Assembly (NCBI GenBank): GCA_017616785.1
Contig: JAFZXK010000012.1
Location: 32,004-96,003 of the forward strand
Length of the DNA stretch: 64,000 nucleotides
Direction: 5' to 3'
DNA from: Alphaproteobacteria bacterium
GTDB lineage: Bacteria; Pseudomonadota; Alphaproteobacteria; Rs-D84
The position numbers and the translations under genes were made by a program. This document shows positions 4,458-28,014 of the stretch, in pieces (within the stretch, counting starts at the first letter, position 1; every line of letters begins with the position of its first letter). The notes below the pieces were generated by a model. The model searched no databases. It was not told the origin of the DNA and was given only the letters and a program-made list of their open reading frames with translations.

Positions 4458-4461
4458 GATT

Positions 4462-4798: not shown

Positions 4799-4816
4799 TT
4801 ATTCAACTATTCGTGA

Positions 4817-4846: not shown

Positions 4847-4946
4847 ATACTTTTTATAAAAAAACATAAAAAAAAATTTTTTTTGGTTGCGGTTGGTTAT
4901 CTAATTTTCTACACTGGGGTCATAGGAATGGAAGGAAAGGGATTGA

Positions 4947-7900
4947 ATGTCACGTTTTCTGCGGTTTTTTAGGGTTTTTGTCGTTGCAGTTATATGCGGT
5001 TTTGGCGCACTTTCGGCGAATGCATTGGTTACATTGAATGATGGTGGTGCAATATATGCCGGTGCGCCACATAGTATCGAAAGATTGAATTCCAATACAC
5101 AATTGATGGCTTTTCCATATAGACCTGGGTACGGGTTTGCCGGGTATTATACTGCACAGGATTGTGCCAGTAATGCCCAGCAGATATTGACACACGAAGG
5201 TACATGGACTGGAACGCAGTATGATGGCACAATTTATGCATGTTGGGTGCCGTTGGTTCCTGGTGGAATTAATAATCCTTTTGGACATACAAAATTATTT
5301 GTTTTGGATAAAAACGGTGGTGATACGGTTGGTAATATGTGGCCAAATCTGGACCAGCCAATTGAGTTTGATACGACTGATTATAATTTTGGTGGAACCG
5401 GGCGTAGTATAAGGTTTGAAAATCGTGGTGATTGGGTATATTTGCAGTGTTATATTTATAGGGATGGTATATGTGATGATTTGCAGTGGCGTATGCCCAG
5501 GGATGCGGCGGGGAATCAGGCAATATTTAGTCCTACAAAACTTTTTTGGACCATTCAGGGCGTACAGGAACTTCCGACGCGTTCGGGGTATGCGTTTGGG
5601 GGAATGTACAGTACCAGCGGTACAACTGGTGGAACGCAATATTGTAATGCGAATGGTAATACCACGGATATAAATTCGTTGTGGAATAACAGTTTGCCGG
5701 CATTCAACACTATTTATGCCCGGTGGAATGCGATGACGGTGTATTTGAATGGCACTGGTGTTTCGCCAAATCCTGTTTATTTTTATGGTGGAAATTGGTA
5801 TTCGGATAGTGGTGCCACGCAACCTATAACCGCGTTAACAAGTTTGCCGCAAAATGGAAGCTTTGATTTTCTTGGTTATTATACGGCGCCGGATGGTGGT
5901 GGAATACAGATTGTTCGTGAAAATGGAACATTTCTTACCGGGGACGATGTAACGGGGGCAATCACGGATGGAATTCATTTGTATCCATTGTGGCAGAGTG
6001 CACCAACATGGGCGACGTTGACGATAAATGACCGGGATGAAACGACCGGTTCGGTTCCGAAACCTTTGTATTATCCGTTAAGTGGGTGTTCTGTATCCGG
6101 TTTTAGAGCAACACAATCGTGTGATGCGGCCACAGTAAACAATATAACCGTGCCAACGAAAAATGGTTGGGTGTATGGTGGGCATTTTGCGGATGCTGGT
6201 GGAACTGGAAGGGCTTATATAAACCCCGATGGAACCTTTAACCAGTTGAATAACGGGATTTCCGGTGATTTAACCATATATGCAAAATGGACATTTAGTA
6301 TTTCATATTCCACCGGTGGTTCAGCAACGTGTACATATGGAACGACGTGCGCTGCGGCGGCGGCGCCAGAGCCACCGTCTTCTGGACAAGTATTCAACGG
6401 ATGGGCGTGTACGTTAAGTAACGGCGGGGCATGCGCCCAAAGTGTTTACCCCGAGGGTGGAAATTTGGCGAATGCCACGAATAATACTGCTGGGGTGACT
6501 GGCATCACCCTAACCGCGACATGGTCGTCGACGGCACCGACCTATGTTTACAAAAAGGTTACATTGGATCTAAATGGTGGAACGATTGGTCCAGCCCAGG
6601 TTATTAATAAGATTTTTGAAGGTTTTAATGGTAGTGTGTCTTTGGGATTCTTTACTTGTCAATCCGCGTCTTGTAATAGCACCGGGTCGAGTTGTACATG
6701 CGAAGGTGCAACGGCGATTTTGGGTTCGATATTTGATGCTGGAATATCACGGCCGACCAATGGAAACAATGCATTTGGTGGGTATTATACCCATAGTAGT
6801 GGTGGGTATGAAAGAGTCGATAGCGAAGGGTTTATAAAGGGTGAACTTTACAGTGCTGCACCAGTAACCATTTATGCGCATTGGGTCGCACCGCAAGAGG
6901 TTAAATTGGATGCTGGTGCTATGGGTTCGTGGTCAAATTGTAGTGGCAAGGTTTTGGAATATGCGGGGTTGCCGTTGACGCCGATTGGTAATGACTGTAA
7001 ACCAACGGCGGCAAGTGGATATACTTTTAAAGGTTATTTTGATGGAAATACAAAGTATTATGATGGTAACTTAAATCCGGTGCGTGATGCGTGGCCGATG
7101 TCGAATGCCCCAACCGAATTGGTGGCTGGTTATGATGCGGTGCTGTATGCGGTAAATTATTATTGTGGCAATAATCTGGTGCATACGGAGTATGTGGCCA
7201 ATAATGCTCCATATACCATATGGGATGGAAATGGTGGAACCGCATGTGGTGACCCTGTATCCGCATCACCGTCGTCCGCGGGAAGTCGCCTCGCCGGGTG
7301 GCAACAACAGAATACCTCAACCGAATATGGTCTTGGACAGAATGTTTCTCCTTTCGTAATTACGGGGTCTATAAATCTCGTAAGTGTGACACGCAGTATT
7401 TATTATGTAACATTGAATCATAATAATCCAGATAATACCCCATCGCCAGATAGCGTTTATTTCTGGAACGGACATTGGTATACTGGGAACACCGCCGTCG
7501 CCCCCAGTCAGATAACGACTATGAATCCAAAACCTGTAATGGCCGGGTATACATTTAACGGATATTATACCGGAAACAATGGCACAGGAACACAGGTTAT
7601 CGATTCTGAGGGTGATTTTATAGATGTTCCGGTGACTACCATAGGGCAAAACGGTGCACAAATAACCGCCAATTGGACAATGCGGCAGTATGCGGTACAG
7701 TTGATTGCTGGTAACGGCACCTGTGACAGCGGTTGCAGCACATATATGTATTATCAGGCAAATGTCGGATGGACCGCAAATTCAAATGGTTCTACGCCTA
7801 TTACATCTATTAATCCGCCAACACCGCCAACGGGTCAGGTATTTAGTGGGTACTATACCGGTCAGAATGGCACCGGAACGTTGGTTGTGGATGGCAGTAG

Positions 7901-10900
7901 AACCATACAGGTTACCGGAACGGATGCATTGAATTTGCTTGAAGCATTGGGTGGTGGTACTAGTACTACTTTAAAGTTTTATGCAAAGTATGATGATATA
8001 CAAACTGCCCCAACGAACCCAAATGGATATTTTGCGGTGACAACGACGGAGTTAGCGGCAAATACAGAATTTAAGTTTGCGATGTCCGCGGCGGGTGATT
8101 TCTGGGTTGATTGGGATGCGGATAACCAAAATACCAACAGTATAGTACGTATTACGCCTGATAATACCAACCTCACCATGTATTCGCATGTTTATGGAAC
8201 GTCCGGGGCAAAAACAATTAAGATTTGGCGAACAGTGGGAACAAGTGTGTCGTATAATACCGATATTATTGAGCACCTAGATATTTATACTAGTGTGCCG
8301 GCAATATATTTTGGTGAAGCCCTGGGTATTGATGGGGTTGCACCGACATCAAGTCTTGTGGCGGCTATATCTGGTTCACTTGGTGCGGTTTTCCCGACGG
8401 TTAATAGTACGTTATCTGGCACTCCATCATTTTCTCATGCATTTAAGGGTTGTAGTAACTTGAATGGTAATATACCCGAAGATTTGTTTGGCTATATGTC
8501 TGATGGAAATTATGTTGGTGTGACTGGCTCAAGATCATATATGTTTTCAAACACATTTGCTAATACGGGATTAACGAGTATACCGGGAACGTTGTTTGGT
8601 CGTACTACGATAAATGGGACTTATTATGGTGTATCAGGTGCGGCGGAAGATATGTTCGCTGCTACATTTGCAGGGATGCCTATAAATACTGATACGAATC
8701 CGATACCAGAGAATTTGTTTATAGGAATAACGGGAAATGCGAAGGGGTTGTTTGCATCAACCTTCGCTGGGTGTACAAATTTGAAAACAGTTCAGGCCGG
8801 CTTGTTTAGCGGTGTGTCTGGGGCGGCTAATCAGATGTTTAGGGCCACGTTTATGCAGTCTGGCTTGACGTCGTTACCCCCTGGGTTGTTTGGCGGTGTT
8901 TCCGGTGTTGCACAAGCAATGTTTAATCAAACATTTGCTGGGTGTAACCATTTGCAATTGATACCAGATAGTTTGTTTAGTGGTGTAAGTGCTACTGGAA
9001 ATGTGAATGATTCAGCAGCCAGCATGTTTTATGGTACATTTGTGGCTTGTACCGCGTTAACTGCCCTGCCCGCGACATTGTTTGGAACAATAGATGCGCC
9101 AGGGGTTGATAGGACGTTTATGTTTAGTGGTATGTTTGCTAATAATACGGCTTTGGGGGGGTATATTCCGAAAACGTTGTTTGCGAATGTTACTGATAAT
9201 GATGCTACATATTTTATGACGGATATATTTGGTGGTGATACCAACCTCGCCACATCGTGCGGTTCGTATAATTTAACGCAATATACAACTGGGTTTGAAG
9301 ATTATTGGAATGGGCATGTTTCATGTGCGCCGGTGGCAACGTTTAGTTGTGGTATCGGAAGCGGGACCGCCCCGAGTTCGATATTTGTAGAACCGGTGCA
9401 GTCGGGCAGTGTTACGTTTACATTTCCGGCGGTAAGTGGGTGTAGTGCCCCGAATCATTACAATAATACCAACAGACAATGGACGTGCGATGGTTCGGCA
9501 TGTGTTTATGGAACAAATAGTCATGTATACTGGGGGGGGGGCGAAACCTATCCTACTAGCAACAATGTATCGTGGGATGGTCAACAAAACGTTGAATTCT
9601 ATATGACATATACGCCGGAGACATATACCATAACATTGAAACGAAATCATGACAGCAATGATGACACGAACGTTGGAACGATTACGGAAACATATGCGAC
9701 TTCGTGGTCTGGGGCGCCGACTATTCCGGCAAGTTGGTCCGATGGAACATATACGTATAATTTTGATGGTTATTTTACAACGCGTGATAATACCGGGGCA
9801 CGTATGACCGATTTGAACGGAAATTTTGTTGGTGAGGCGGCGACGTTTATGGTTGGGGCAAGTGGAAATTGGTATGCGCATTGGACGACTATGACGGGGC
9901 CATTTACCGCAACATTTAAGTGTGACGAAGATTCCAATACGACGATTCATACAATATCAAATATTTATATTGATCCGACGAATCATCCGAATGCCGATGT
10001 TATCACTATGCCTGCACTTAGCGTTGGGGCTTCTTGTACCAAAACTGGGTACGAGTTTGCCCGGTGGAAAGTCCTTGGTACCAATGATGTGGTCAACCCG
10101 AATGCTACGTATACCTGGACATTATATGGGGGTTCAGATGTTATCCCCGATTGGCAACCGGTTCAGACCACAATTACACTTAGCCCCAATGGCGGAACGG
10201 GTGGACCGGCGGCAGTGTATACACGGTATGCCAATGGTGTTTATCGGGATTCAGAGCGCACTGTGCAAATGACAACCGGTAATAATCCGCTTACTTCATT
10301 GCCGATGAAAACCGTGAATATAACCTTTGCGCTGAATGATGGCAATTCTGGTGATGCCACGTTGAATGCAGGCGGACAAAGTTATAGTGGCAATAATTTG
10401 TTAAGTGTTCCTGTGGGGTTGCCGTTCCAAGGTTATTATAATACCGACAACACAAGGATGATAAAAGGTAATGTCAAAGAGAATGGCAGTCAAGAATCAA
10501 ACCCGGGCCATATTACTTCCCAAGGTGATACCGACGGTAAGGAGTATACTACAAATCAAACTTGGACGGCTGTGTGGCAACCCAAAACGGTTTCAAATCA
10601 AGATTTCCAATATCAAAATTACGATTTGGAGAATATGATACCAACATGGGACGGACATGTGTTCTTGGGGTGGTTTACCGCGACCAGTGGTGGTCAGCAG
10701 ATAACGGACGGCAATGGTAATATGAATTGCGAAAATTGTTTCAGTCAGAGTATAAACGGAAACAAAACATGGTATGCACATTGGCAGGTGTGTTCACACA
10801 CACAACCATCGGATCCACATGCGACCATGAACGCAATAGGTGCGATTGGTGGTGCGTGTGCGTATCATATTGTCTGTGATCAAACGCCATATGGATATAC

Positions 10901-19900: not shown

Positions 19901-22900
19901 TTTTGCGGGATGGTTTGTTGCTAATGGGGCGACACCCGTGGGAAATAATGAAGGTCAGTTTACACCGGGTAATAATGTGACGTTGTATGCGCATTGGACC
20001 GAATGTGCCGCGGGGAACTATTGCCCGGGAATGGAAACTGTAGATGGTGAAACGCTGTATAATACGGTGTATTCTTGCAGTCAGGCAACAAACGGAAAAT
20101 ACGAAAATAGTGTGGCCGGCAGCGACGATATCAGTGATTGTTATTTGGTATTAGAAGCCGGTAAATGGGTTGAAACGGTGGGGGCTGGTAAAGTTGCGTG
20201 TACCGAAGGTTATTATTGTAATGATAATGCGACACAGGTTTATTATTCTGACCCAGGGGATAATCGTCGGACCACAGGTATAAGGAATGCCTGTCCAACA
20301 GGTTTTGCGAATACGGTTGGAACGGGTAACACATCAATAAATCAGTGCTATAAAAATGTAACATTGAACAAGCGTGGCGGTAGTGGCAATCTTGGTGGGG
20401 CAAGTGGTACGAATAATGGTTCACGGTTGTGTTATTATGATATAGATTGTACATTACCGGATGCGTCGGTGTTGGTGTTGACCGGGCATACTTTCCACGG
20501 TGGTTGGACCGACCAGGCCGACACAGATTGTGATAGTACTACGCGCGTGTTTAATATGCCGAACGATTATCCTGATACTGATACTTTTTATGCTTGCCGG
20601 ACAACAAATGCTTATACGGTTACATTAAAGGACGGAATTGACACAAATACAACATACGGAACTGTGAGTAATGTTACCTATGGACAGCCGATGCCGACGG
20701 TTGCGGTACCAGAGCATTCTGCACAGCATACCACATATACCTTTACGGGATATTACGATAACCCACAGACATCGAATTCGGGCGTGAAGTATTATAATGC
20801 GGATGGAACAAGCGCAAAAGATTGGGATGTTGCCCAGAATGCCAGTTTATATGCATGGTGGGATGTTGGATGCGATGCGGGATATTATTTGCCGGCGAAC
20901 AGTTTTGTATGTACCGCGTTGTGCCCGGCGGGAAAATATTGTGCGGGAAATATGACTTTTTCAGCGGTGCTTTTGCCGTGGGATGCCGACCAAGGAATAT
21001 CTGGGGTCGTGGCGGCCGGGTATTACAGCACCGGCGGCGGAACAATTGCGACACCGACCGCCGCGGGTAATGGATGTGTGACCGGAAACACATGTGGCAT
21101 TGTTAGCGGTGGGTACTACAGCACCGGTGGCGGAACGGCCGCGGCGCCGACGGAGACGGGTAATGGATGCCTTAGTGGATATACTTGCGGTATATTGTCC
21201 GCGGATTATTTCAGCAATGGTGGTGGAACGGTTCCAAACCCAAGTGGTACACAAAACGCTGGGTGTGTCAGTGGACAAACTTGCGGAACCTGCCCTGTGA
21301 ATTATCGGGCGGCGACTGATACAACCGGTAAAACCGTTATTACGCAATGTGTGGCTGCATGTATTGCGGGTCAACGCGTTGTGAACGCCGCAGACCCAGA
21401 CGTCAATAGTCCGTATGCCGCAGGTTGCACGACGCCGTCTGGAAATTTGTGGTGGAGTGATGCACACAATGTAAATTATGGGTCAGCGTCCCCGGCTGTT
21501 AGTGTTGCAACGGATACGGGGGTTCACACATGTGCGACGAACTATGCGACAGTAGCACCTTCTAATGATCCTAATGATCATAATGAGCAATCTGATTGCA
21601 AACGAAATGTATGGTTGAACAAAAATGGTGGAACAACGATAGATGGAGCAACATGGCCCGAAGGGGTGACGGATAATGGGGACACCCAGTTAAAACGTAC
21701 ATGCCAAGAAGGCGTGTCTTGTGCATTTGGTAATCCGGCGCTGTTGCTGGAAAAACCGGGGTGGACATTCCAAAATGCGTGGGGAACTAATGCTAGTTGT
21801 ACGGGTACAACGTATGAGTCACCCGTTGCGTCGCCATTAACCAGTGCAAAGTATTACGCGTGCAAGAATCAAATCGATTACACATTGACCTATGCGTGCG
21901 GGACGGGCACAGGAACGGCGCCGGTACACACGACACCAAATCCAATACATTATGGTAATACGGTTACGGTTGCTGCGGTTGGTGATTGTGCCAAAACGGG
22001 GCATCATTTCACCGGTTGGGCGGTTAGCAATTCCGAAGATGTTGTGCAACCGGGTAATATGACGTGGAATTACGAGGAAAACAAGACCTTTACCGCACAA
22101 TGGGCGCCAGATGTGTATGATATTGATTATGATTGGAATGGCGGAAACGCATATTCATCGGCCGTGCCAGCGGAATATAGTCAGGTTGGATATGTAGATA
22201 TGCCCGCTGGTTCGTATTTACTTACAGATATAATACCGACTTATGATGGACATTATGAGTTAGATTTTCAGACAACAACTATGACTGCCAGCCCAACAAC
22301 ATATTTGGGGGCGAGAACTAGTTCAAGCACAAACGGTTTGCGTTTGGCACATATATCATCTGGTGTGTTTAGATTTTATGGTTTTGGGAGTTATGTTGAT
22401 TCAACTGTAAATTGCCAAAATAATACAAGATATAAATTTGTTTGGGATAACAAAGATTGCACTTTAACAACTGGCGACACAACGATAATATCAAAAACAT
22501 TTACAACTTCTGGCAGCAATACAACCCCTTTGAGTATAAACGCCTGGAATACAGAGGGGGCTATTAACGGGAACAACGAAGGCATCCGTGTCTATTCGTT
22601 CAAAGCGTGGAACAATCAGGGTACATTGATTGCGAACTATGTTCCTGTTAAGGACAGCAATGATGAAGCCGGATTCTATGATACGGTATCTGGGGAATTC
22701 AAAGGTGCGACAGCCGGGACCTTGAGTGCTACCGATGAATATCCGATGGAATATACATATGGTGTTGGGGCGACGGTTTATGGTGTGCCGGTGCGCGCAA
22801 ACAGTGTGTTCGAAGGTTGGTGCCGAACGGAATCGGCCGGAAATACATTTGACGATTGTGCAATGCCGCATGAAATCACCACAACCGACATCGAAGATAA

Positions 22901-25900
22901 ATTGTTACATGCAAAATGGTCTTGCGATGCGGGGTATCATTTAAGTGATGATGGACAAAGTTGCGTTGGAAATGAAATAACCATTCAATACAATAAAAAT
23001 GGTCATGGAACTGAATTGACGCCGCAAAGTCAGACATGTATTTATGGTTCACAATCGGATCCACTTGCAAATGGTCTTACACAGCAAGGTTGGTGGTTTA
23101 TGGGATGGAATGTTCCGAATGTTGATACATTTGATGCGGGTGAAACAATTCCGTGTGATGTGGATCATTTGGGTGTGACCACTGGAACGGTTACCTTGAA
23201 CGCGAATTGGGAACCATGGTGCAACAAGATTACCTTGGATAAAAACAACGATAATGCATCGTATGGTATAAGGTATTTGTATGCCAAGACCAGAGAGGCC
23301 GGCGATACCCATGATAGTACGTGGTACAAGAATGATACTTGCACGGTGGAATATACATCCGCAGATTATGAAAGTGTAAAACCATCGCGCACCGGATTGG
23401 GTTTCCGCGGGTTTTATCAGAGTTCCAGTGATGCGGCGGATATAAATGCGACACAAACGAACGGTGCAGCGCAACTTATTTCACATACTGGGGCGCCGAC
23501 TACAACGGGACGGATTTTCGTAAATGGTTTAACGGGTGATGTAACGATATATGCCGGTTGGGCCCAGGATTGTGCAAATTCGATTTCAAACGGAACATGT
23601 TCGCGAACTCTTGGGGCAAATACAAGTTATGCCACCACATGCGCCACCGGTTATCATTATGGCACGGCGCCAGATGGTGTGACCTATAATCCGGCAACAC
23701 AAAATAACACCAGTGAATCGACATATAATCCAATATGTGTTGCGGATACGATAAACATTGTTTTGGATAAAAATGGCGGAACGGGAACATGTGGCGGTGC
23801 GGGTGGAACAACGTCTGGAACAATGACATGCTATTATGATGGAACATGTAATACGCCAATTTGGAATTCATGTAGTATTAGCAATGGCGCACGGATATTT
23901 ACGGGTTGGAACACCGAATCGGATGGAACCGGAACACCGTATGGCAGTGCCGAGATTGGTGTTGGTATTGATACAACCGATCCCACAATTTTGGCAAACG
24001 GATTAACGCTTTATGCGCAATGGGCGGATGTTACATGCAATGTTTCGCATGGAACCGCGACGGCGAGTGCGACCGCAACGAATACCCCAACATGTTGGGT
24101 TGATTCTGATTCGTGCGATAATGGTTATTCGCTTAGTGCAAATCCGCCATATTATGGAACACAGCATACAACCACGGTAAATACCGGCCAATGCAATGAG
24201 GCGACATATGATATAAATTATGAATGGAATGGCGGAAATGAATATTCGTCGGTCGTGCCACCTGAATATACGCAGTTGGATTATTTAACTTTTTCTGGCG
24301 ATCAATATATTGATACCGGTGTGATTTTAACTAATTCACAAAACATTGAAAATGTCATTGAAATGCAGGCAGATTCGGCGAGTGGTTTCCAAACATGGAC
24401 AGGTTTTATGAAAACTTCGGAGATGACTCCTAGGTATGGAATAAACTTTTATGGTAATAAGTGGATGATTGGTATAAACGCAACTTCGTCAAATGGAGTT
24501 ACGGCAGATTCTGGCCGACATATTGTAAAATTTGTAACAACAAATAATGCACAGATACTTTACGATACAGATGGTACAACGGAACTAGCCAGGTCAAGTT
24601 TAGATGCAAATGCGTTGTCTAGTAATGTTTTGCCATTATATATTGGAGCGCGTAATAACAGTGGAACTCCAGTTAATTTCGTGAATGGAAATATAGGTCG
24701 TACGTATTTGAAACAAAATGGTGTAATGCTTTATAATCTTATTCCGGCGCGTCATAATAGTGATGGGGTACTTGGTATGTATGACACGGTAACGGGAACA
24801 TTCTTTATAAATGAGGGTATCGGTAATTTTGGTGCGGGTAATGTTGTTACCAATGCATATCCGACAGAATACACATACGGTATCGGTGCGACGGTTTATG
24901 GTGTGCCGGTGCGTGCGAACAGTGTGTTTGATGCATGGTGTCGGAATGCGGCGTTAACCGAAAATTGCACAATGCCGCATGAAATAACCACAACTGATTA
25001 CGGGGACAAAGATTTATATGCAAAATGGTCTTGTGTGGATGGGTATCAATTGAATGCGAACAATCAATGTGTTGGAAATGATATAACTATTACATATCAA
25101 AAGGGAACCCATGGTGTTGGAAATCCGCCACAGCCGGTAACAAAGCACTATAATGATCGATTGGAACTTGAAGACGCGATGAGTGGCGAATATGGTTGGA
25201 CGTTTGTCGGTTGGCAGATAAATGGTGTTACATATAACGGGGGTGATCGTATAACACTTGATTTTGACACCCTTGGCATGTACAGCGGTAATATAAATGC
25301 CATCGCCCAGTGGGAGGCGGATGTGTATACTGTGCATTATAATTGCAATACCACATGGCCAGATGTGCGTGTGCCGGCGGATGGGTATCCGACAACGGGT
25401 GTACAGTTCTGGGCTGCATCGGCAAGTTCGTGTGTGAATCCGGGCTATCATTTCGTTGGTTGGTTGCCTGAATCCGATTGGCTATCTACAATATGGGTTA
25501 ATGGAACAGAGTGGAATTTGATAAACAGAAATGATCCAACCGATACAGATGTAATCTTTACCGCCCAGTGGGAACGTGACGATCCGGCGTTTACTGTAAT
25601 GGTTACGGTGCCCGCCGGTACAACATTTAGTTTTGATACTTTTGCGTCCGGGCAATTCTGGGTCGATTGGAATTATGTGGCAAATCCGGGGGTAAGTGTT
25701 GATGAATTTGAAACGGCGACGGTCGTCGCACATACTTGGTCGCATGAGTATACGACCGCTGGAACGTATGTCATTGGTATCGGTGGTCGTGCATCGGGGT
25801 ATTTTTCCGGTTCAGGTACGGCCAATCAAAGAAAAGCGGCAATAAGTTTCTTTAATGGAACACTGGATGGGACGGGTGTTGATGCCCAAATCGCATTGGA

Positions 25901-27659
25901 TGATAATGAACAGCCACTGAATGGTTCCGAACAATATATTGTTTCGGCCAAGGGTTCGTTGGGGTCGATATTCCCAACAATAGCGGCGGGAACATACCAT
26001 GGACAACCGCGATTCTATCGCACATTCAAAAACACATTTGCAATGACGCAACGGTTGCAAAACTTGGCGGATTTGTTCGATGGTATTTATGGTGACCCGG
26101 TTCCGTATATGTTTGCCGAATTGTTCGATGGTTCGGCAATAACTGGGACGATACCGGCGGGATTATTCCCGGTTGATGGAACGGTGAAAACGGCATTGTT
26201 CCTGTCCACGTTCCGTGGTTGTGCGGGCCTCTCTGGAACTATACCGGCGGATTTGTTTAAAAATATTGCCGGTGCACCGTTGAATTATATGTTTAGTCGG
26301 ACGTTTAGGGGTTGCACCAACCTTACGGGGATACCGGTGGGATTATTTAGGAACATCAGCGGTGCGCCCGCAGCCAATATGTTTTCGTACACTTTTATGG
26401 GCTGTTCCAATATTACCGGAACATTATCAAAGAATTTGTTTGGAAATATAGATGGGGCACCGGCGGCAAGTATGTTCACTTTCACGTTTAATGCGTGCAC
26501 AAAGTTGCAGGGTGATACATCAAACCCGGAAATTGCGATTCCGGACGGAATGTTTGGAAAACTGCGTGGTGCGGCGGCGAATTATATGTTCCATTACACA
26601 TTTTATAACTGCAGTGAATTAACCGGAAAAATTGGCGGTGCATTGTTTGGTGGGTTAACCGGGGAACCAGCAACCAATATGTTCTATCGGACATTTTCGG
26701 GTTGTTCAAAACTTAGTGGTTCGATTCCGAATAATTTGTTCGGTAATATGACCGGTGCGCCGAAAGGATATATGTTTCGTGAAACGTTTTATGGGTGTTC
26801 GAACCTGACGGGGAATATACCGGATGGTTTGTTTGGAAGACCAAATGGGTCGGCGGCGGACTATATGTTTTATGGAACATTTTATAATTGCGGTGGTTTA
26901 ACCGGCAAAATACCGGACGGTTTGTTTGGCACACCAAGTGGAACGGCGGACTATATGTTTTATGCAACATTTTATAATTGCGGTGGTTTAACCGGTGAAA
27001 TACCAAGTCGTTTATTTGGAACGCCAAGTGGTGCGCCTTCCGTCAGTATGTTCTCTAAGACATTTTATGGGTGCGGTGGTTTAACCGGAACAATCCCAAG
27101 TACTTTGTTTGGAACATTGTCTGATGCGGGGGTCGATAATATGTTTTATCAAACGTTTTATAATTGCGCGAACCTGAATGGATATGTGCCAGATGGGTTG
27201 TTTGGAACCATGACCGCGGGCGGAACGACTTCAATGTACAGGGTTTTTGCCGGTTCGGGATTATTAACCGAATGTCCGTGTGGAACAACGGATGTTAGTC
27301 AAGATAGTCCGTTCTATTCATATTGGCAATCAACAGCGTCGTCCGCCACGCCAAAGAAAGTATCTTGTCGTGTTGATACGACACCTGGGGATTTCTATTG
27401 GTATGGCGGGGAATGTTCGACCATTTGTCCGGTCGCCACGATGGATGAATTGCATGTTGCCAATTTAACGCCCTATCCGGTGTTGGCGCGCAAGGTTTCG
27501 GATGTTGCAATAAATATCAAATATGGCGATACGACATGCTATGTTCCGTTGACGGCGGGTAATGGCGGTGCGAACAGTTTGAATATGAAGTATAATAACA
27601 CCGTTTATCATGCCGACCGACCGGGAACAACGCCGCCCGCCGGATTCGGACAAAGGTAA
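4947..27659 (+). CDS. giant secreted repeat protein (7570 aa): Listeria/Bacteroides-type (Flg_new-like) repeats, BspA/DUF285-like LRR blocks, duplicated modules
   Basis: Uninterrupted 22,713-nt ORF. RBS 'ggaaggaaaggga' precedes the ATG. N-terminal signal peptide (MSRFLRFFRVFVVAVICGFGALSANA). Dozens of ~70-aa repeats carry the G[YH]TF.G[WY]...G......(L)YA[KH]W signature. Two blocks of ~31-aa repeats of form LFG..SGA...MF..TF.GC..LTG.IP. G/T/N/Y-rich composition. No frameshift or internal stop. Confidence 0.9.
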   Translation: MSRFLRFFRVFVVAVICGFGALSANALVTLNDGGAIYAGAPHSIERLNSNTQLMAFPYRPGYGFAGYYTAQDCASNAQQILTHEGTWTGTQYDGTIYACWVPLVPGGINNPFGHTKLFVLDKNGGDTVGNMWPNLDQPIEFDTTDYNFGGTGRSIRFENRGDWVYLQCYIYRDGICDDLQWRMPRDAAGNQAIFSPTKLFWTIQGVQELPTRSGYAFGGMYSTSGTTGGTQYCNANGNTTDINSLWNNSLPAFNTIYARWNAMTVYLNGTGVSPNPVYFYGGNWYSDSGATQPITALTSLPQNGSFDFLGYYTAPDGGGIQIVRENGTFLTGDDVTGAITDGIHLYPLWQSAPTWATLTINDRDETTGSVPKPLYYPLSGCSVSGFRATQSCDAATVNNITVPTKNGWVYGGHFADAGGTGRAYINPDGTFNQLNNGISGDLTIYAKWTFSISYSTGGSATCTYGTTCAAAAAPEPPSSGQVFNGWACTLSNGGACAQSVYPEGGNLANATNNTAGVTGITLTATWSSTAPTYVYKKVTLDLNGGTIGPAQVINKIFEGFNGSVSLGFFTCQSASCNSTGSSCTCEGATAILGSIFDAGISRPTNGNNAFGGYYTHSSGGYERVDSEGFIKGELYSAAPVTIYAHWVAPQEVKLDAGAMGSWSNCSGKVLEYAGLPLTPIGNDCKPTAASGYTFKGYFDGNTKYYDGNLNPVRDAWPMSNAPTELVAGYDAVLYAVNYYCGNNLVHTEYVANNAPYTIWDGNGGTACGDPVSASPSSAGSRLAGWQQQNTSTEYGLGQNVSPFVITGSINLVSVTRSIYYVTLNHNNPDNTPSPDSVYFWNGHWYTGNTAVAPSQITTMNPKPVMAGYTFNGYYTGNNGTGTQVIDSEGDFIDVPVTTIGQNGAQITANWTMRQYAVQLIAGNGTCDSGCSTYMYYQANVGWTANSNGSTPITSINPPTPPTGQVFSGYYTGQNGTGTLVVDGSRTIQVTGTDALNLLEALGGGTSTTLKFYAKYDDIQTAPTNPNGYFAVTTTELAANTEFKFAMSAAGDFWVDWDADNQNTNSIVRITPDNTNLTMYSHVYGTSGAKTIKIWRTVGTSVSYNTDIIEHLDIYTSVPAIYFGEALGIDGVAPTSSLVAAISGSLGAVFPTVNSTLSGTPSFSHAFKGCSNLNGNIPEDLFGYMSDGNYVGVTGSRSYMFSNTFANTGLTSIPGTLFGRTTINGTYYGVSGAAEDMFAATFAGMPINTDTNPIPENLFIGITGNAKGLFASTFAGCTNLKTVQAGLFSGVSGAANQMFRATFMQSGLTSLPPGLFGGVSGVAQAMFNQTFAGCNHLQLIPDSLFSGVSATGNVNDSAASMFYGTFVACTALTALPATLFGTIDAPGVDRTFMFSGMFANNTALGGYIPKTLFANVTDNDATYFMTDIFGGDTNLATSCGSYNLTQYTTGFEDYWNGHVSCAPVATFSCGIGSGTAPSSIFVEPVQSGSVTFTFPAVSGCSAPNHYNNTNRQWTCDGSACVYGTNSHVYWGGGETYPTSNNVSWDGQQNVEFYMTYTPETYTITLKRNHDSNDDTNVGTITETYATSWSGAPTIPASWSDGTYTYNFDGYFTTRDNTGARMTDLNGNFVGEAATFMVGASGNWYAHWTTMTGPFTATFKCDEDSNTTIHTISNIYIDPTNHPNADVITMPALSVGASCTKTGYEFARWKVLGTNDVVNPNATYTWTLYGGSDVIPDWQPVQTTITLSPNGGTGGPAAVYTRYANGVYRDSERTVQMTTGNNPLTSLPMKTVNITFALNDGNSGDATLNAGGQSYSGNNLLSVPVGLPFQGYYNTDNTRMIKGNVKENGSQESNPGHITSQGDTDGKEYTTNQTWTAVWQPKTVSNQDFQYQNYDLENMIPTWDGHVFLGWFTATSGGQQITDGNGNMNCENCFSQSINGNKTWYAHWQVCSHTQPSDPHATMNAIGAIGGACAYHIVCDQTPYGYTQYGGNNTTQNFDIIATVGSYSGVLDSAKCLPRTYSIDYQNVTEHGGTLPAGTIDTYTYGVETEVNAVPTSPSENFESWCTGYDESTGVYSGCATTQTIPDTTYGDKPYYAKWAGCKTGYRTYNYDVRVTADYDNQSHEYLAGACAPGNYVVTCNKNCPAGETCNACLEDIFSQYHLGQRYGVYSQQWETQVGVVGALGAVLPHGSGSQYLPFGGDEYGQSGDTSFGIRPLYSYNGIGAGTDPLDMPASSIFMQNDYVAYMTALTQLNNKTFGTSHYDFNGLWTDATSEDSQYRYLPTVNGTTPWSQRNADGKALSKFFTSDATVYAHWIPHVYSVKLMRNHSSTDYNQKGTLYEEYGNGWNNANTGTFGTNYQLPSDLIPSWTGYTFSGYWTTRDDSGTQLVAKVNNAWTVTADAKTLVDNNAKWYAHWTPKQFTITLDNADALVNGTASLTSIYDSGAYLNVDGTLTLMDKDNGPAITLPEHKYTVSFDLNYNGAPNGPATQYPGWTFNGYFSASSNGTKYIAADGKITQSGTDKAKILTANATWNAQWTQVANLTLPDVYNSGAGYFGQPGYVFIGWWTTSNENAGTSVGVNGDTYDAAQNQTLNQTLYAQWRPCSYTGATGATSVSVATSDLNACVYTITCPANYTCEGNNCEIIGEPDSYATVTLPDCVGAGHTITYYDNPAYGTNVELNTQSYTYNPNGSVTLNPDLNNTVYDDHHAASVQWCDIDGNNCVTQIAPQNQTGDIALYAKWTCATGYTSTYTFDAQVAEYGSNSGFVEFNAGMCAPKRYRIICDKNCPTYTSDGQTVTESCNACLEDFSLLQAGTVGKYSWGYLYNSSLFDPNGALESSQVPVPVYSVNSTLGDFMLFTTTPKYEHLYLWPVPLDENASLLGALNTGNYKTFMMALANEQYNSSLDFGAQHYTFDGLWTAASDGEIYINANGWVAGPNNTDSEMHSEVASKSFTSDTDVYAHWDPKVYDITLDPDDGTPGGSMSGTVVTLLKQKWNTGWKAGTHGDFVSAGSFQLSGPQLPTRDGYIFNGYYTQQNCQGTKIVNADGTLNLNATSTAGDVQHATYFENENGSTLYACWESLSYNISYDWNGGSHDTCSDSGNPAVCPSVATFGGNAFRVPAPTHEHGTFKGWIITGMDDGVAHKYGQDSSVTNTTTNTGLDLSQTNDGPSMVYFKDLRGSAGTVTFTAKWECTQGWGNADCSEPGAHVITIKAGYGVSKLNGGTGWSGNDTGTITRSYNTDGEVTLGDINATLKGGYTGRTYRVTVSGNGQLIENNTKFKVGSGDATIYIDATGITTPVPTISGGATKVYNYQSTTLTGTVSNSTDYDSGISFTYRFGVSDTSDGTYDYTTSDINTKTIAKDAYLDTKYHKVEITAHGEGELASSAGVSATPAEVKLQNAPIKFNVGTGETLVGSSPLYAPYNINGNLYSGEFSPATDTPATVPSATKSNYNFAGWWTSADGGSMVYDGDRTLTSNNVSGYVNYANGETKWVVTSTNGKDLYPHWDGKIYTITLDRNGATNGTATFYEKYDNGYALSSNPTDWTTTLSITVPTKTGHTFGGYYANSNFSGAQVIGTDGALPTNPKYFTQSKTLYAKWTANTYNISYNTNGGTAGTDQPETVTFGTVFHVDNPTPTGHQTSFAGWNVTNMQSGVTHYYGTSDSNVAAHGTGTSWGYTTITPDRQYFKNLRANADATVKFTAVWNCEYPYEAPACSEPGDVKVTVNPGAGVSTVAGVGDGWVSDGSGSVYKYFDFGEQITLSTVVSPVLKLGYIATSGYAYTKTSGAGTLNNGVFTVGDGDAEITVAATGVKTPVPTISGGVTQIYNYQDVTLVGTLGNSTDYGSDSGISFAYQYGYSTSSDGTYGNWTTSPTVGAAAFHGTRYYKAKITASGEGGLSATGTSSNPTEVTLTQRTVTFNPNGGTLGDSSGRYIRYNSPDLYTTATSDTPIAAPTVTRNYYTFDGWWTTSSGDGSQIYDANGNLTTTTIAGWTGEYGWAATQDRTLYARWNGNVYKLNLNKNGGTTNGSAVTVLNEKYGTGWRIGTSGNFSSSVSLSGDQLPTMPGHTFAGYYDEATNGNPKGTFENGSWTTPGATTITAETTWYAHWTPNTYTVTYDCGIGNGAGSTDTATYNPNNDPNGSYTTKTLAQANCETSLMGHYFNGWNVTPGHSASDTWGAGVWRAWDYTENQTLTARWVAKEYHITFDNNGATTPGTSQVWEHYGTTGGFWHDAAQNHVTTITLPQKTGHTFNGYALNGVTYIDTNNNLPEPTLTFGDTSNNATVDITLTAQWTPITYNIYYDENGGSRTLPAGYTPREFIESNGTQYIDTGIKGNMGYTYELEFQQTDTGNYRNWGVFNQSGYSGQNMSLTYVNGWAVRWEARAGQRSYVDLGTKNTDRHVLRVVDGEVYFDGVDKGKSAGHDSSFEFNYNLFLGTINPGGTTPSSNAKSRYYSYRVWNASGELIQNLIPVSHVENGVTVVGMYDTVSGQFFTSVPSGTNFAAGPAVDISTTLYPNNYTYGVGAKIYAVPMREHSVFQGWCRTENPFTGCAMPYEITTTDLGDKTLYAKWRCETGYSDTGSACVANTIILNWNENNGNYQELPNDQCTYGGDLTLPGGAPVNSNALVFNGWKLVNNDYVDGGDTVTNGCVETYTGVTSGTSTGIMAQWCNACNTTHATCTLDATTVPGTCSYTTACESGYHLSPDSALNVYNTVCIPYTITYDANGHGNGAVDDNVRYNQTFTTNDAKDTDEFLWANHIVTTWTRVSGGNFPNVGAEYPYNVQSDTTLRANWGECNCTPGTNATACSTTSSNNECQVNVITCATGYTGTSWSCDGTDCTASCSDSHNHTISLQHALSGVTGGTNTIYSIDSGASSGAGVYLDNTHQQLMAVSGANSNPVTLPDSFAYTVTYDVSGGTLETGAANSAQAVATFNGYYDSANGEGLYISGDTGNITSEGIAAGTSTNSDATWWGQWTIASITLPIAYRPGYVFAGWFVANGATPVGNNEGQFTPGNNVTLYAHWTECAAGNYCPGMETVDGETLYNTVYSCSQATNGKYENSVAGSDDISDCYLVLEAGKWVETVGAGKVACTEGYYCNDNATQVYYSDPGDNRRTTGIRNACPTGFANTVGTGNTSINQCYKNVTLNKRGGSGNLGGASGTNNGSRLCYYDIDCTLPDASVLVLTGHTFHGGWTDQADTDCDSTTRVFNMPNDYPDTDTFYACRTTNAYTVTLKDGIDTNTTYGTVSNVTYGQPMPTVAVPEHSAQHTTYTFTGYYDNPQTSNSGVKYYNADGTSAKDWDVAQNASLYAWWDVGCDAGYYLPANSFVCTALCPAGKYCAGNMTFSAVLLPWDADQGISGVVAAGYYSTGGGTIATPTAAGNGCVTGNTCGIVSGGYYSTGGGTAAAPTETGNGCLSGYTCGILSADYFSNGGGTVPNPSGTQNAGCVSGQTCGTCPVNYRAATDTTGKTVITQCVAACIAGQRVVNAADPDVNSPYAAGCTTPSGNLWWSDAHNVNYGSASPAVSVATDTGVHTCATNYATVAPSNDPNDHNEQSDCKRNVWLNKNGGTTIDGATWPEGVTDNGDTQLKRTCQEGVSCAFGNPALLLEKPGWTFQNAWGTNASCTGTTYESPVASPLTSAKYYACKNQIDYTLTYACGTGTGTAPVHTTPNPIHYGNTVTVAAVGDCAKTGHHFTGWAVSNSEDVVQPGNMTWNYEENKTFTAQWAPDVYDIDYDWNGGNAYSSAVPAEYSQVGYVDMPAGSYLLTDIIPTYDGHYELDFQTTTMTASPTTYLGARTSSSTNGLRLAHISSGVFRFYGFGSYVDSTVNCQNNTRYKFVWDNKDCTLTTGDTTIISKTFTTSGSNTTPLSINAWNTEGAINGNNEGIRVYSFKAWNNQGTLIANYVPVKDSNDEAGFYDTVSGEFKGATAGTLSATDEYPMEYTYGVGATVYGVPVRANSVFEGWCRTESAGNTFDDCAMPHEITTTDIEDKLLHAKWSCDAGYHLSDDGQSCVGNEITIQYNKNGHGTELTPQSQTCIYGSQSDPLANGLTQQGWWFMGWNVPNVDTFDAGETIPCDVDHLGVTTGTVTLNANWEPWCNKITLDKNNDNASYGIRYLYAKTREAGDTHDSTWYKNDTCTVEYTSADYESVKPSRTGLGFRGFYQSSSDAADINATQTNGAAQLISHTGAPTTTGRIFVNGLTGDVTIYAGWAQDCANSISNGTCSRTLGANTSYATTCATGYHYGTAPDGVTYNPATQNNTSESTYNPICVADTINIVLDKNGGTGTCGGAGGTTSGTMTCYYDGTCNTPIWNSCSISNGARIFTGWNTESDGTGTPYGSAEIGVGIDTTDPTILANGLTLYAQWADVTCNVSHGTATASATATNTPTCWVDSDSCDNGYSLSANPPYYGTQHTTTVNTGQCNEATYDINYEWNGGNEYSSVVPPEYTQLDYLTFSGDQYIDTGVILTNSQNIENVIEMQADSASGFQTWTGFMKTSEMTPRYGINFYGNKWMIGINATSSNGVTADSGRHIVKFVTTNNAQILYDTDGTTELARSSLDANALSSNVLPLYIGARNNSGTPVNFVNGNIGRTYLKQNGVMLYNLIPARHNSDGVLGMYDTVTGTFFINEGIGNFGAGNVVTNAYPTEYTYGIGATVYGVPVRANSVFDAWCRNAALTENCTMPHEITTTDYGDKDLYAKWSCVDGYQLNANNQCVGNDITITYQKGTHGVGNPPQPVTKHYNDRLELEDAMSGEYGWTFVGWQINGVTYNGGDRITLDFDTLGMYSGNINAIAQWEADVYTVHYNCNTTWPDVRVPADGYPTTGVQFWAASASSCVNPGYHFVGWLPESDWLSTIWVNGTEWNLINRNDPTDTDVIFTAQWERDDPAFTVMVTVPAGTTFSFDTFASGQFWVDWNYVANPGVSVDEFETATVVAHTWSHEYTTAGTYVIGIGGRASGYFSGSGTANQRKAAISFFNGTLDGTGVDAQIALDDNEQPLNGSEQYIVSAKGSLGSIFPTIAAGTYHGQPRFYRTFKNTFAMTQRLQNLADLFDGIYGDPVPYMFAELFDGSAITGTIPAGLFPVDGTVKTALFLSTFRGCAGLSGTIPADLFKNIAGAPLNYMFSRTFRGCTNLTGIPVGLFRNISGAPAANMFSYTFMGCSNITGTLSKNLFGNIDGAPAASMFTFTFNACTKLQGDTSNPEIAIPDGMFGKLRGAAANYMFHYTFYNCSELTGKIGGALFGGLTGEPATNMFYRTFSGCSKLSGSIPNNLFGNMTGAPKGYMFRETFYGCSNLTGNIPDGLFGRPNGSAADYMFYGTFYNCGGLTGKIPDGLFGTPSGTADYMFYATFYNCGGLTGEIPSRLFGTPSGAPSVSMFSKTFYGCGGLTGTIPSTLFGTLSDAGVDNMFYQTFYNCANLNGYVPDGLFGTMTAGGTTSMYRVFAGSGLLTECPCGTTDVSQDSPFYSYWQSTASSATPKKVSCRVDTTPGDFYWYGGECSTICPVATMDELHVANLTPYPVLARKVSDVAINIKYGDTTCYVPLTAGNGGANSLNMKYNNTVYHADRPGTTPPAGFGQR
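8370..9290 (+). repeat. intragenic block 1 of ~31-aa BspA/DUF285-like leucine-rich repeats (preceded by an FWVDW module)
   Basis: About 9 tandem units such as GLFASTFAGCTNLKTVQAGLFSGVSGAANQMFRATF. Same architecture as block 2. Confidence 0.6.
25960..27280 (+). repeat. intragenic block 2 of ~31-aa BspA/DUF285-like leucine-rich repeats
   Basis: About 14 units of form MF..TF[YR]GC..LTG.IP..LFG...G[AS]. Also preceded by an FWVDW-containing module. Confidence 0.6.
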
Positions 27660-27685: not shown

Positions 27686-27710
27686 AAAACCGGGCATTCG
27701 CCCGGTTTTT
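27686..27710 (+). terminator. intrinsic terminator of the giant gene (AAAACCGGGCATTCGCCCGGTTTTT)
   Basis: GC stem plus T tract 27 nt after the stop, followed by a GTGTTAGTGGGG heptamer motif. Confidence 0.65.
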
Positions 27711-27958: not shown

Positions 27959-28014
27959 ACTATACATCATACCCCGTCTGCTGCGCATCCACCCCTTTCC
28001 ATGGGAAAAGGGGA

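Follow-up and report, generated by a model that had tools for sequence, protein, structure and literature searches.

A 7570-residue mosaic protein of Candidatus Enterousia as a putative, fast-evolving attachment fibre

Giant surface proteins make up the second main class of bacterial proteins longer than 5000 amino acids and are tied to host-associated lifestyles (PMC11573180). In Apilactobacillus kunkeei, the genes for giant surface proteins take up 6% of a 1.5-Mb genome; Giant1-5 of this species are 3000-8000 amino acids long, join an elongated repeat stalk to a solenoid binding domain, diversify rapidly between positional homologues and cluster with other large secreted proteins (PMC12863079). 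Very long ORFs have also been described from metagenomes in Omnitrophota and other ultrasmall or host-dependent bacteria, which are uncultivated and probably partner-dependent, and here too the huge proteins are associated with a host-associated lifestyle (bioRxiv 10.1101/2023.11.21.568195; PMC11573180). On the Gram-negative surface, a very large repeat stalk carrying ligand-binding modules is typical of the T1SS RTX adhesins (LapA, SiiE and MpIBP type). Such adhesins are made without a Sec signal, and their C-terminus carries RTX repeats together with the signal for the T1SS. Flg_new repeats (PF09479, TIGR02543) occur in surface proteins of Listeria, other Firmicutes and Bacteroidota; the Listeria internalins are held on the cell by LPXTG or GW-type anchoring.

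The gene described here lies in a window of 64,000 nucleotides, which is the whole stretch of DNA analysed. The gene and its immediate surroundings are as follows.

4464-4810, minus strand: rnpB (RNase P class A; model match, 175.7 bits)
4811-4946: divergent intergenic region of 136 bp, common to rnpB and the giant gene, with an A9/T8 tract and a Shine-Dalgarno-like GGAAAGGG upstream of the ATG
4947-27659, plus strand: giant gene, ATG start, 7570 codons plus stop
27686-27709, plus strand: terminator-like hairpin AAAACCGGGC-ATTC-GCCCGGTTTT followed by T, 27 nt past the stop codon
28353-30962: secA, neighbour gene of the giant gene

By sequence, the host is a Candidatus Enterousia, a gut alphaproteobacterium of the order Rs-D84; a Ca. 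Enterousia MAG contig has the same gene order, with ruvB 98.5% and tolQRA 85-94% identical to this locus. Members of this lineage are widespread in the guts of livestock and humans, have genomes of 0.75-1.0 Mbp without a TCA cycle, respiration or standard transporters, and are reported to encode many hypothetical membrane-bound proteins (PMC12306168). The giant gene alone would account for some 2-3% of a genome of this size. The initial annotation had described a single 22.7-kb gene for a secreted mosaic repeat protein, placed it next to rnpB and secA of an alphaproteobacterium and compared it with the giant surface proteins of symbionts. Each of these points has held: the frame is open, the N-terminus is signal-like, the Flg_new units are significant, the flanking genes are as named, and a symbiont-type surface protein fits Ca. 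Enterousia with its reduced genomes (PMC12306168). The same annotation considered the gene unusual next to core genes, but the site between tolA/rnpB and secA is a conserved one, occupied in the same way in at least two other Enterousia-like species. An origin by horizontal transfer was dismissed, because the gene does not differ from its flanks in GC content or GC skew and sister species share the synteny. On the plus strand, the region 4811-4946 showed no strong sigma-70-type site. The next ORF after the giant gene encodes a 99-aa hydrophobic protein that is kept together with secA.

How does the giant protein compare with the described systems? The most likely reading is that of a giant, adhesin-like surface protein, a fast-evolving putative attachment fibre. 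With its length, its share of a small genome (several percent in A. kunkeei), its repeat stalk and solenoids, its rapidly diversifying positional homologues and its large secreted neighbours, it resembles Giant1-5. However, those belong to monoderm Firmicutes and have an N-terminal beta-solenoid akin to that of serine-rich-repeat adhesins, whereas the Enterousia protein belongs to a diderm alphaproteobacterium and combines LRR solenoids with a Flg_new stalk and a distinct conserved C-terminal domain. In contrast to Flg_new proteins elsewhere, about 40 units are found in one alphaproteobacterial chain, several of them with a LamG-like insertion of about 200 aa, and no LPXTG or GW-type match to Pfam points to anchoring of the Listeria kind. 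RTX adhesins differ in their ends: the giant protein starts with a Sec-type signal, has no HemolysinCabind/RTX match and finishes in a Cys-rich domain, and it thus falls outside the T1SS class. Foldseek returned weak PA14-like matches to the carbohydrate-binding domain of MpIBP, at E~1 and not significant. The giant genes of the Omnitrophota type belong to another phylum and have another domain content, while no cell-wall-degrading domains were found here; at 7.6 kaa, the protein is also far below the size records of giant genes.

Is such a long reading frame genuine? Its translation contains a single, terminal stop (none within 7570 codons), while the five remaining frames hold 170-625 each, so that chance can be ruled out for an ORF of this length. 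The product is identical to NCBI MBO4582959.1, already deposited under the name "InlB B-repeat-containing protein". One could suspect an assembly artefact, by collapse or expansion of repeats, or a decaying, non-functional pseudogene array, since the assemblies compared are all short-read metagenome assemblies and since the orthologue of one sister species (ERZ1667814 scaffold_6100) is broken into three ORFs by two out-of-frame deletions. We give this explanation hardly any credence, and it is already largely refuted. Near-identical DNA repeats able to collapse are absent from the gene: the sole tandem DNA array consists of 2.4 copies of 90 nt with an 84% match, and internal repeats at the protein level are only 35-55% identical to one another. 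Other metagenome contigs call the same 7570-aa product, one full-length copy differing by 1 aa and a second copy, cut off at a contig end after 5856 aa, by 2 aa. Across the 15-22 kb of DNA compared, separate assemblies agree in length and differ by 0-9 mismatches, without indels. Moreover, another species cluster has an intact orthologue of 7432 aa that is colinear from end to end, with 52% identity and the same module order. The giant gene is real and maintained; the two deletions in the sister species indicate that it can also be lost or inactivated. A gene that occupies a conserved locus, fills about 2-3% of the genome and has kept its reading frame intact for 7.5 kaa across 50% sequence divergence probably has a central part in the lifestyle of its host.

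The mature product has a mass of about 807 kDa and a pI of about 4.5. Its N-terminus and modules were mapped as follows.

4947-5024, plus strand: Sec-type signal peptide, aa 1-26, MSRFLRFFRVFVVAVICGFGALSANA (sequence, hydropathy and conservation in orthologous giants)
5082-8000, plus strand: N-terminal array of Flg_new-like units, aa ~46-1018 (profile; missing from the L009 orthologue)
8019-9341, plus strand: module 1, aa ~1025-1465, with a divergent PKD-type head (FWVDW), at least 7 LRR units of 28-37 aa and a Cys-containing C-cap (aa 1436-1465)
9342-17828, plus strand: central region, aa ~1466-4294, Flg_new units among Cys-rich spacers and two duplicated module pairs
17829-18461, plus strand: LamG/pentraxin-like jelly-roll copy 1, aa ~4295-4505, inserted within a Flg_new unit (fold from copy 3)
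19989-21926, plus strand: Cys-rich region, aa ~5015-5660, with C.AGYY..C / GCC2_GCC3- or EGF-like motifs and G/T-rich repeats (Cys density)
22125-22733, plus strand: LamG/pentraxin-like copy 2, aa ~5727-5929
24219-24851, plus strand: LamG/pentraxin-like copy 3, aa ~6425-6635
25584-27263, plus strand: module 2, aa ~6880-7439, with a PKD-type beta-sandwich head, then at least 11 LRR units of 30-38 aa
27264-27368, plus strand: LRR C-cap, aa 7440-7474, TECPCG...VSC (same motif behind every LRR block, here and in L006)
27369-27638, plus strand: Cys-rich C-terminal domain, aa ~7475-7564, ...C.T.C...YP...CYVPL..G.G...N...YH (profile search, position)

Visual inspection and hydropathy show a positively charged n-region at the N-terminus (MSRFLRFFRVFVVAVICGFGALSANA|LV), then a hydrophobic core and an A-x-A motif, with a putative cleavage at residue 26; this is the sole hydrophobic segment of the protein and is conserved in the orthologous giants, in agreement with the Sec signal peptide proposed earlier. 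The precursor would thus pass the inner membrane via Sec. Cys17 of this signal peptide is invariant in 8 of 8 orthologous giants and in the L009 orthologue, which raises an alternative: the protein could be a surface lipoprotein, lipidated at Cys17 and held by its N-terminus on the outer membrane, with the C-terminal domain as its distal functional tip. The n- and h-regions before Cys17 span 16 residues, a typical length for a lipoprotein signal, and the I-A that precedes it in 5 of 9 sequences fits a PROSITE-type lipobox. The lipobox demands Ala, Gly or Ser at position -1 (PROSITE PS51257). However, this position is Ile or Val here and in three orthologues (VIC, IVC, IIC, TIC), and a good A-x-A site for signal peptidase I follows further on at residue 26. 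A lipoprotein is therefore an improbable reading, although the conserved Cys17 makes it possible that, in an N-terminally anchored protein, the C-terminal domain would be the distal tip.

Pfam Flg_new (PF09479; cutoff 27 bits) reaches 64.1 bits on one half of the protein and 55.3 on the other, and TIGR02543 gives up to 38.3 bits against 20.95. When the protein was cut into 10 overlapping pieces and run against Pfam and NCBIfam at a permissive E<=1, Flg_new matched 8 of the 10, and beyond Flg_new and TIGR02543 only sub-threshold PARCEL and sub-threshold cEGF appeared. The units are tandem, about 70 aa long and end in aromatic-Ala-x-Trp; the motif YA[HKRQ]W is observed 18 times where 0.08 would be expected. 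The InlB-B-repeat-like units ending in YA[HK]W that the initial annotation had noticed are thus confirmed. An in-house iterated profile gives 43 candidate matches, about 40 of which are credible units; one lies in the LRR/C-cap region. A PDB sequence search with the Flg_new stretch aa 3900-4300 returned nothing significant. Together with disulfide-rich EGF/GCC-like spacers, these units may form a long, acidic, extended stalk, a role suggested by that of such repeats in other surface proteins.

The protein contains 171 Cys, and C..G[YFW]..C mini-domains number 10 against 1.8 +/- 1.3 in shuffles, in agreement with the earlier report of Cys-bracketed mini-domains; both would suit an oxidised protein outside the cytoplasm. 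Two Flg_new-like units (aa 5156-5306) break up the Cys-rich region aa ~5015-5660. No significant EGF-like or GCC2_GCC3 match was found in the giant protein: cEGF scores 19.3 bits against a cutoff of 26.6, and does so elsewhere than in this region, and GCC2_GCC3 (PF07699, displayed as Ephrin_rec_like) matches some relatives only. The duplicated pairs of the central region (aa ~2100-2252 with 2742-2907, and aa ~3195-3425 with 3703-3931) have no Pfam or PDB sequence match, and PDB sequence searches with module Y and with the LamG-like module gave nothing significant. The latter matches solved LamG/pentraxin/concanavalin-A-like jelly-rolls at the level of the fold.

Which family do the solenoid blocks belong to? 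The initial annotation had proposed two blocks of FWVDW followed by BspA/DUF285-like LRRs of about 31 aa, and had named Flg_new, DUF285 and LRR_5 as the families to be searched. The two blocks are present (aa ~1025-1465, nt ~8019-9341; aa ~6880-7474, nt ~25584-27368), with a period of 28-38 residues that is mostly 31 (30-31 in 10 of 11 units of block 2) and, in module 2, the consensus MF..TF.GC..LTG.IP..LFG...GAP.... The family names did not stand: of the three, only Flg_new was recovered (64.1 bits against 27), and Pfam DUF285 (PF03382) and LRR_5 (PF13306) have no match in the giant protein even at E<=1. TIGR02167 (PARCEL) stays below threshold, at 18.7 bits in the C-terminal block and 15.4 in block 1 against a cutoff of 30, covering positions 1-13 of the 26 in the model. 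Like PARCEL/DUF285 and BspA-type LRR_5 proteins, the blocks form an LRR-type solenoid on an 'MF..F.GC..L' core; unlike PARCEL/DUF285, with a period of about 26 residues, they have a period of 31 and add a PKD-type head and a Cys-containing C-cap, which always accompany the LRR module. Among 54 relatives of the module, 22 match TIGR02167 at E<=0.01 (best E 9.3e-20), one matches LRR_5 (E=0.002) and none matches Pfam DUF285; the TIGR02167 matches indicate a related motif and not a clean subfamily. At the level of the superfamily, the curved solenoid can be superposed on solved LRRs, while a PDB sequence search with the C-terminal block found nothing significant.

On either FWVDW head of the giant protein, the PKD models PF00801 and PF18911 have no match. 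Homologous heads of relatives, 30-42% identical, score 29.6-39.3 bits with PKD_4 over the same segment (cutoff 27), and an AF2 model of the head of module 2 is a beta-sandwich. By homology to the relatives that pass Pfam PKD_4, the head is probably a divergent PKD-type domain. A 'pilus' lead through the CPR pilus protein PamR (NF058578) was rejected: relatives score 18-31 bits against an equivalog cutoff of 300, over 36-72 residues of the head, and the giant protein has no match. The likeness of the relatives' heads to PamR is a local domain resemblance only. A PKD head joined to a PARCEL-like LRR of 31 residues gives 557 matches; this large family, which lacks an existing model, is useful beyond the giant gene.

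How fast does the protein change? Compared with the sister species, flanking proteins are 82-95% identical while the giant itself is only 33-55% identical. Within the species, copies differ by 1-3 changes; between species, divergence is saturated. A protein scan of genome representatives found only five loci, at 34-39% identity, and this species is thus apparently absent from the representatives. Among eight giants of 2640-7570 aa, the signal peptide is nearly identical and the tail domain is present in all eight, while the numbers of Flg units (8-39), heads (0-2) and LamG modules (0-4) vary. The passenger, which would be the exposed part, thus diversifies fast between species by substitution and by gain and loss of modules, and both ends are conserved. 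Such change is as expected for a molecule that faces a host, a partner cell, or immune or phage pressure, and the ~800-kDa protein is probably a cell-surface fibre for attachment or partner recognition in Candidatus Enterousia.

Rapid evolution, together with size and a repeat-rich build, is also common to secreted toxins or effectors of the polymorphic-toxin, MARTX or contact-dependent-inhibition type. This explanation is highly unlikely for the giant protein: Pfam and NCBIfam gave no toxin, protease, TPS, RHS or RTX family, the C-terminus is not polymorphic but better conserved than any other part, and the adjacent gene is not immunity-like but encodes the 99-aa hydrophobic protein.

The neighbourhood raises another alternative. 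Four large ORFs with signal peptides follow downstream (36.6-51.7 kb), and about 38 kb of the 64-kb window encode large secreted, T/G/N/S-rich proteins without enzymatic domains. The giant and these four ORFs might build a protective surface coat or envelope-structural layer of a minimal-envelope cell, and the giant would then not act as a specific adhesin. The acidic product (pI ~4.5), the conservation of the locus within the genus, and a lineage without standard transporters but with many hypothetical membrane-bound proteins (PMC12306168) would agree with a coat. By contrast, LRR and LamG/pentraxin domains are typical recognition modules and not lattice formers, no S-layer family was matched in Pfam or NCBIfam, and the extreme divergence between species, with module gain and loss and one interrupted orthologue, argues against an essential structural role. 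We consider a coat unlikely and retain the attachment fibre.

How would such a fibre reach the outer surface? The initial annotation had raised the question of export for a protein of this size in a diderm, and the question is legitimate. At E<=1, Pfam and NCBIfam show no signature of outer-membrane export or anchoring (TPS, autotransporter, RTX or T9SS-CTD). Neither a C-terminal beta-barrel nor an N-terminal TPS domain, as in type V secretion, was matched, and models of the T9SS CTD have no match in the C-terminal piece 10 of a protein whose host is an alphaproteobacterium and not a member of Bacteroidota.

The Cys-rich C-terminal domain is undescribed and is the most interesting part of a gene of otherwise known kind. 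It occurs in 607 protein cluster representatives, and among its carriers are proteins of Alphaproteobacteria MAG contigs. For the 71 full-length matches among the top 76 tabulated, the median distance of the domain from the C-terminus is 6 residues, and 67 lie within 25 residues. The carriers range from about 80 to 7432 aa, and 50 of the 67 that start with Met have a hydrophobic N-terminus; the passengers ahead of the domain include LRR, Flg_new, LamG-like and purely Cys-rich proteins. From its distribution over 607 clusters and its position, nearly always at the very end of proteins with a signal peptide, we propose a putative role in anchoring or sorting. In the giant, the domain may hold the protein on the envelope or mark it for passage through the outer membrane. 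No partner gene is linked to the tail-bearing genes in the three contexts examined, which are three unrelated housekeeping settings.

A bolder proposal, which we regard as tentative and rather doubtful, is that this ~80-residue domain is a previously undescribed sorting/anchoring domain of Rs-D84-type gut Alphaproteobacteria, and that the giant is the principal organelle of attachment in an epibiotic or host-attached life. If the sorting/anchoring reading is true, the domain would be analogous to the T9SS CTD in logic and not in sequence, and an unrecognised route would take Sec-exported cargo of up to ~800 kDa onto the outer surface of a diderm with a genome of about 1 Mb. The family of 607 clusters may mark the surface proteome of these bacteria. 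The giant gene itself is a practical starting point for localisation, partner pull-down and strain typing. A PDB search with the tail profile found nothing significant, and a word-indexed search with the same profile returned seven proteins. When modelled, the C-terminal ~130 residues form a small beta-domain and not a barrel.

What kind of gene fills the stretch between 4947 and 27659? On the plus strand, translation gives 7570 codons from an ATG with the terminal stop as the only one, so the single uninterrupted ORF described in the initial annotation stands. The five other frames over the same 22.7 kb carry 170–625 stops each, which argues that the giant open frame is kept by selection; its GC content and GC skew are like those of its flanks. 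The sole tandem array in the DNA repeats a 90-nt unit 2.4 times (84% match), the longest dispersed repeats are 88–99 nt at 66–88% identity, and the internal repeats of the protein are 35–55% identical. With almost no repeats at the DNA level and divergent repeats in the protein, collapse or expansion during assembly is unlikely. Independent assemblies were compared by taking the three other metagenome contigs that carry exactly the SecA of the window. One is 100% identical to the window, the second has one mismatch in 20.9 kb and the third nine mismatches in 15.2 kb; no indels were seen in any of them, and a gene of exactly 7570 aa is called on two of the three. One full-length copy has one residue change (Y1552D) and a 5856-aa copy truncated by its contig has two. 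GenBank already lists the protein under a repeat-based name, 'InlB B-repeat-containing protein [Alphaproteobacteria bacterium]' (MBO4582959.1); the MAG contig that carries it is 103.9 kb long. An assembly artefact or a pseudogene as the origin of the ORF is essentially excluded.

The giant gene is preceded by ruvB, ybgC, tolQ, tolR, a tolA-like gene and, on the opposite strand, a class-A RNase P RNA, and is followed by secA, dnaE and rsmH. In L009, a contig from a MAG named 'Candidatus Enterousia sp.', RuvB is 98.5% identical to that of the window, and the products of ybgC, tolQ, tolR and tolA are 85–94% identical in the same gene order; after tolA, a large ORF with almost the same signal peptide as the giant runs off the contig. 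Judged from gene identity and shared order, the host is Ca. Enterousia (Alphaproteobacteria, order Rs-D84). Members of this lineage live in the guts of farm animals, have genomes of ~0.75–1.0 Mbp and are without a TCA cycle, respiratory chains or standard transporters (PMC12306168). At that genome size, the giant gene would make up ~2–3% of the host DNA.

The N-terminus of the protein, MSRFLRFFRVFVVAVICGFGALSANA|LV, resembles a Sec signal, including an A-x-A site, and no other segment stands out as hydrophobic in the hydropathy profile, in agreement with the signal peptide first proposed. Its Cys17 (window 4995–4997) is invariant in all eight orthologous giants and in L009, and a lipobox-like I-A-C is found there in five of nine orthologues. 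Both points would fit a rival reading in which the protein is lipid-anchored at its N-terminus through Cys17, but the giant of the window has V-I-C, which does not fit the lipobox.

The rest of the protein is modular in build. Pfam Flg_new reaches 64.1 bits (cutoff 27), with matches in eight of ten overlapping pieces of the protein; TIGR02543 also matches, and YA[HKRQ]W occurs 18 times where 0.08 are expected. Of the 43 matches to an in-house iterated profile, ~40 are credible units. The Flg_new/InlB-B-like units are thereby confirmed, as are the Cys-bracketed mini-domains: the protein contains 171 Cys, and C..G[YFW]..C occurs 10 times against 1.8 ± 1.3 in shuffled sequences. EGF-type models give sub-threshold matches only. 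Two further pairs of modules are duplicated within the protein and matched nothing in Pfam or, by sequence, in the PDB:

aa ~2100–2252 and ~2742–2907, giant protein, duplicated module pair
aa ~3195–3425 and ~3703–3931, giant protein, duplicated module pair

A LamG/pentraxin-like jelly-roll module has the entry motif P.GYT.LEYIESTGTQYIDTG and the exit motif IPARRNSDGVLGMYDTV..TFFTN.G.G.F.AGP, both strongly conserved in the alignment of its homologues. Its listed structural relatives are PAPP-A, a putative carbohydrate-binding protein of Bacteroides (4dqa), pentraxins, neurexin LNS domains and sialidase CBM40. The module is also found as unannotated standalone proteins of 300–500 aa.

Two blocks combining an 'FWVDW' head with ~31-aa repeats, as first noticed, are present:

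aa ~1025–1465, giant protein, head and LRR block 1
aa ~6880–7474, giant protein, head and LRR block 2

The head-LRR family has 557 database matches (E down to 1e-189), nearly all without a Pfam label; every named relative is a 'hypothetical protein' from an alphaproteobacterial MAG, and neither head nor repeats occur without the other. With 54 homologues, AlphaFold2 gives a confident model of aa 6870–7570 (pLDDT 90.9, pTM 0.86), in which a beta-sandwich head and a long solenoid are joined by a small beta-domain at the C-terminus; Foldseek found no significant match to the model. The assignment of the repeats (consensus LTGxIPxxLFxGISGAPAxxMFxxTFxGCSG) to a BspA/DUF285-like type was not supported: neither DUF285 nor LRR_5 matches the giant protein even at E<=1, and among the 54 relatives they match none and one, respectively. 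TIGR02167 (PARCEL) reaches 18.7 bits against a cutoff of 30 over positions 1–13 of its 26, and is matched by 22 of the 54 relatives (best E 9e-20). The repeat is thus an LRR of 31-residue period that shares the PARCEL core motif and lies outside the family by curated thresholds. PKD models give no scoring match on either head of the giant; in relatives whose heads are 30–42% identical, PKD_4 scores 30–39 bits against 27 over exactly the homologous segment. By way of these homologous heads, the head is probably a divergent PKD-type domain. The NCBIfam model PamR, a CPR pilus protein, was dismissed, its matches to the head being short and local (18–31 bits against a cutoff of 300). Tandem arrays of the module exist elsewhere: an ORF of at least 2410 aa in Ca. 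Enterousia sp. (JAZNGD010000046.1, 3–7232) has at least five, each followed by the same Cys-containing C-cap, and the database giants P0207 and P0208 have 10–12.

Of the 120 best head-LRR homologues, 14 retain the last ~130 residues of the giant, mostly at the very end of the protein; in an alignment of 11 sequences, five cysteines are invariant and the domain closes with YH. Positions 1–30 of the tail profile are the LRR C-cap that recurs after every LRR block, so the true terminal domain is the last ~80 residues. When 1.84 billion cluster representatives were searched exhaustively with the profile, 607 proteins matched at E<=1e-3 and 372 of these at E<=1e-10. In the 71 full-length matches among the best 76 of the 607, the median distance between the end of the match and the C-terminus is 6 residues (25 or fewer in 67 of 71), and the proteins range from ~80 to 7432 aa; a hydrophobic N-terminus is present in 50 of the 67 that start with Met. 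The passengers are diverse: among the 143 carriers listed, 64 have LRRs, 39 a head, 29 Flg_new and 10 LamG-like modules, while 27 of the 94 listed that are at least 300 aa long have none of these and are Cys-rich, signal-peptide-bearing proteins with CxAGYY...CPAGYYC. Pfam recognised nothing in eight of ten mid-sized carriers, no sequence relative of the domain was found in the PDB, and three genomic contexts revealed no linked partner gene. The C-terminal position and the diversity of secreted passengers are as expected of a shared anchoring or sorting domain, and this may be its role.

How does the giant evolve? On a contig of a sister species (L004, ERZ1667814 scaffold_6100; present in two samples), the flanking proteins, including those of secA and dnaE, are 82–95% identical to those of the window; the giant orthologue, in the same position, is only 33–55% identical. 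Compared with the giant of the window, it is broken by two out-of-frame deletions (L004 ~8008–8029 and ~9648–9656) into three ORFs of at least 2707, 502 and 593 aa, through either real inactivation or assembly error. At least seven further giants of 2640–7432 aa among the cluster representatives have the tail of the giant and an almost identical signal peptide. The one of 7432 aa is colinear end to end (52% identity, same module order); the others vary, with 8–39 Flg_new units, 0–2 heads and 0–4 LamG-like modules. Between species, therefore, the ends are conserved and the passenger diversifies quickly and is modularly reshuffled. Copies within the species differ by 1–2 residues, with no sign of hypervariation in the population.

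The best-supported reading is a Sec-exported surface fibre for attachment. After crossing the inner membrane via Sec, Flg_new units and disulfide-rich spacers would form a stalk displaying LamG-type and PKD-LRR recognition modules; the fibre may attach a metabolically dependent bacterium to the surface of a host, to a glycan or to a partner cell, and the C-terminal domain would retain or sort it. The gene itself, its domains and folds, the conserved locus, the divergence between species and the spread of the tail domain are established by the analysis; exposure at the surface, binding, the part played by the tail and passage through the outer membrane are inferred. Pfam and NCBIfam searches of the giant gave no TPS, autotransporter, RTX or T9SS signature, so the question of outer-membrane export raised in the initial annotation stands. 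A structural coat is a rival reading, favoured by four further large ORFs with signal-peptide-like N-termini and T/G/A/S-rich composition:

36586–51707, plus strand, four consecutive large ORFs of 762, 1846, 1574 and 829 aa

None has a Pfam match; the 1574- and 829-aa products are paralogues, and the 762-aa one is 83% identical in the sister species. Together with the giant, these large secreted proteins take up ~38 kb of the 64-kb window. No evidence points to a toxin.

Among bacterial proteins above 5000 aa, giant surface proteins form the second main class, and they are associated with life on or in a host (PMC11573180). They occupy several percent of the genome in small-genome symbionts such as A. 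kunkeei (PMC12863079), and other ultrasmall bacteria also have giant genes (bioRxiv 10.1101/2023.11.21.568195). The giant of the window is of this known kind, in a barely studied lineage. Two families look undescribed, that of the PKD-head/31-residue-LRR module and, most of all, that of the C-terminal domain; the interest of the gene would be higher if the terminal domain defines a new sorting or anchoring route.

Several smaller features accompany the locus. In the stretch 1751–4146, neither tolB nor pal comes after tolQ, tolR and the tolA-like gene, and a 239-aa ORF with a hydrophobic N-terminus (3427–4146, minus strand) takes their place; the same position in L009 lacks it. The 136-bp divergent region between rnpB and the giant gene (4811–4946) holds an A9/T8 homopolymer tract at ~4866–4884, which might act in expression switching, and no strong sigma-70-type promoter was found on its plus strand. 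A terminator-like hairpin lies 27 nt past the giant's stop codon. A 99-aa ORF whose C-terminal half is hydrophobic (28001–28300, plus strand) separates the giant from secA; the other assemblies call it as well, and an 89-aa ORF takes the equivalent place in the sister species. The usual followers of rsmH are division and cell-wall genes; here it is directly followed by two ORFs without Pfam matches (35333–36525, plus strand), one of 194 aa with ~4 hydrophobic segments and a Lys-rich one of 193 aa, both 82–95% conserved in the sister species. At ~58000–60000, a strongly positive GC skew becomes negative and the genes change from the plus strand (dnaK) to the minus strand (gltX), a terminus-like maximum of cumulative skew.
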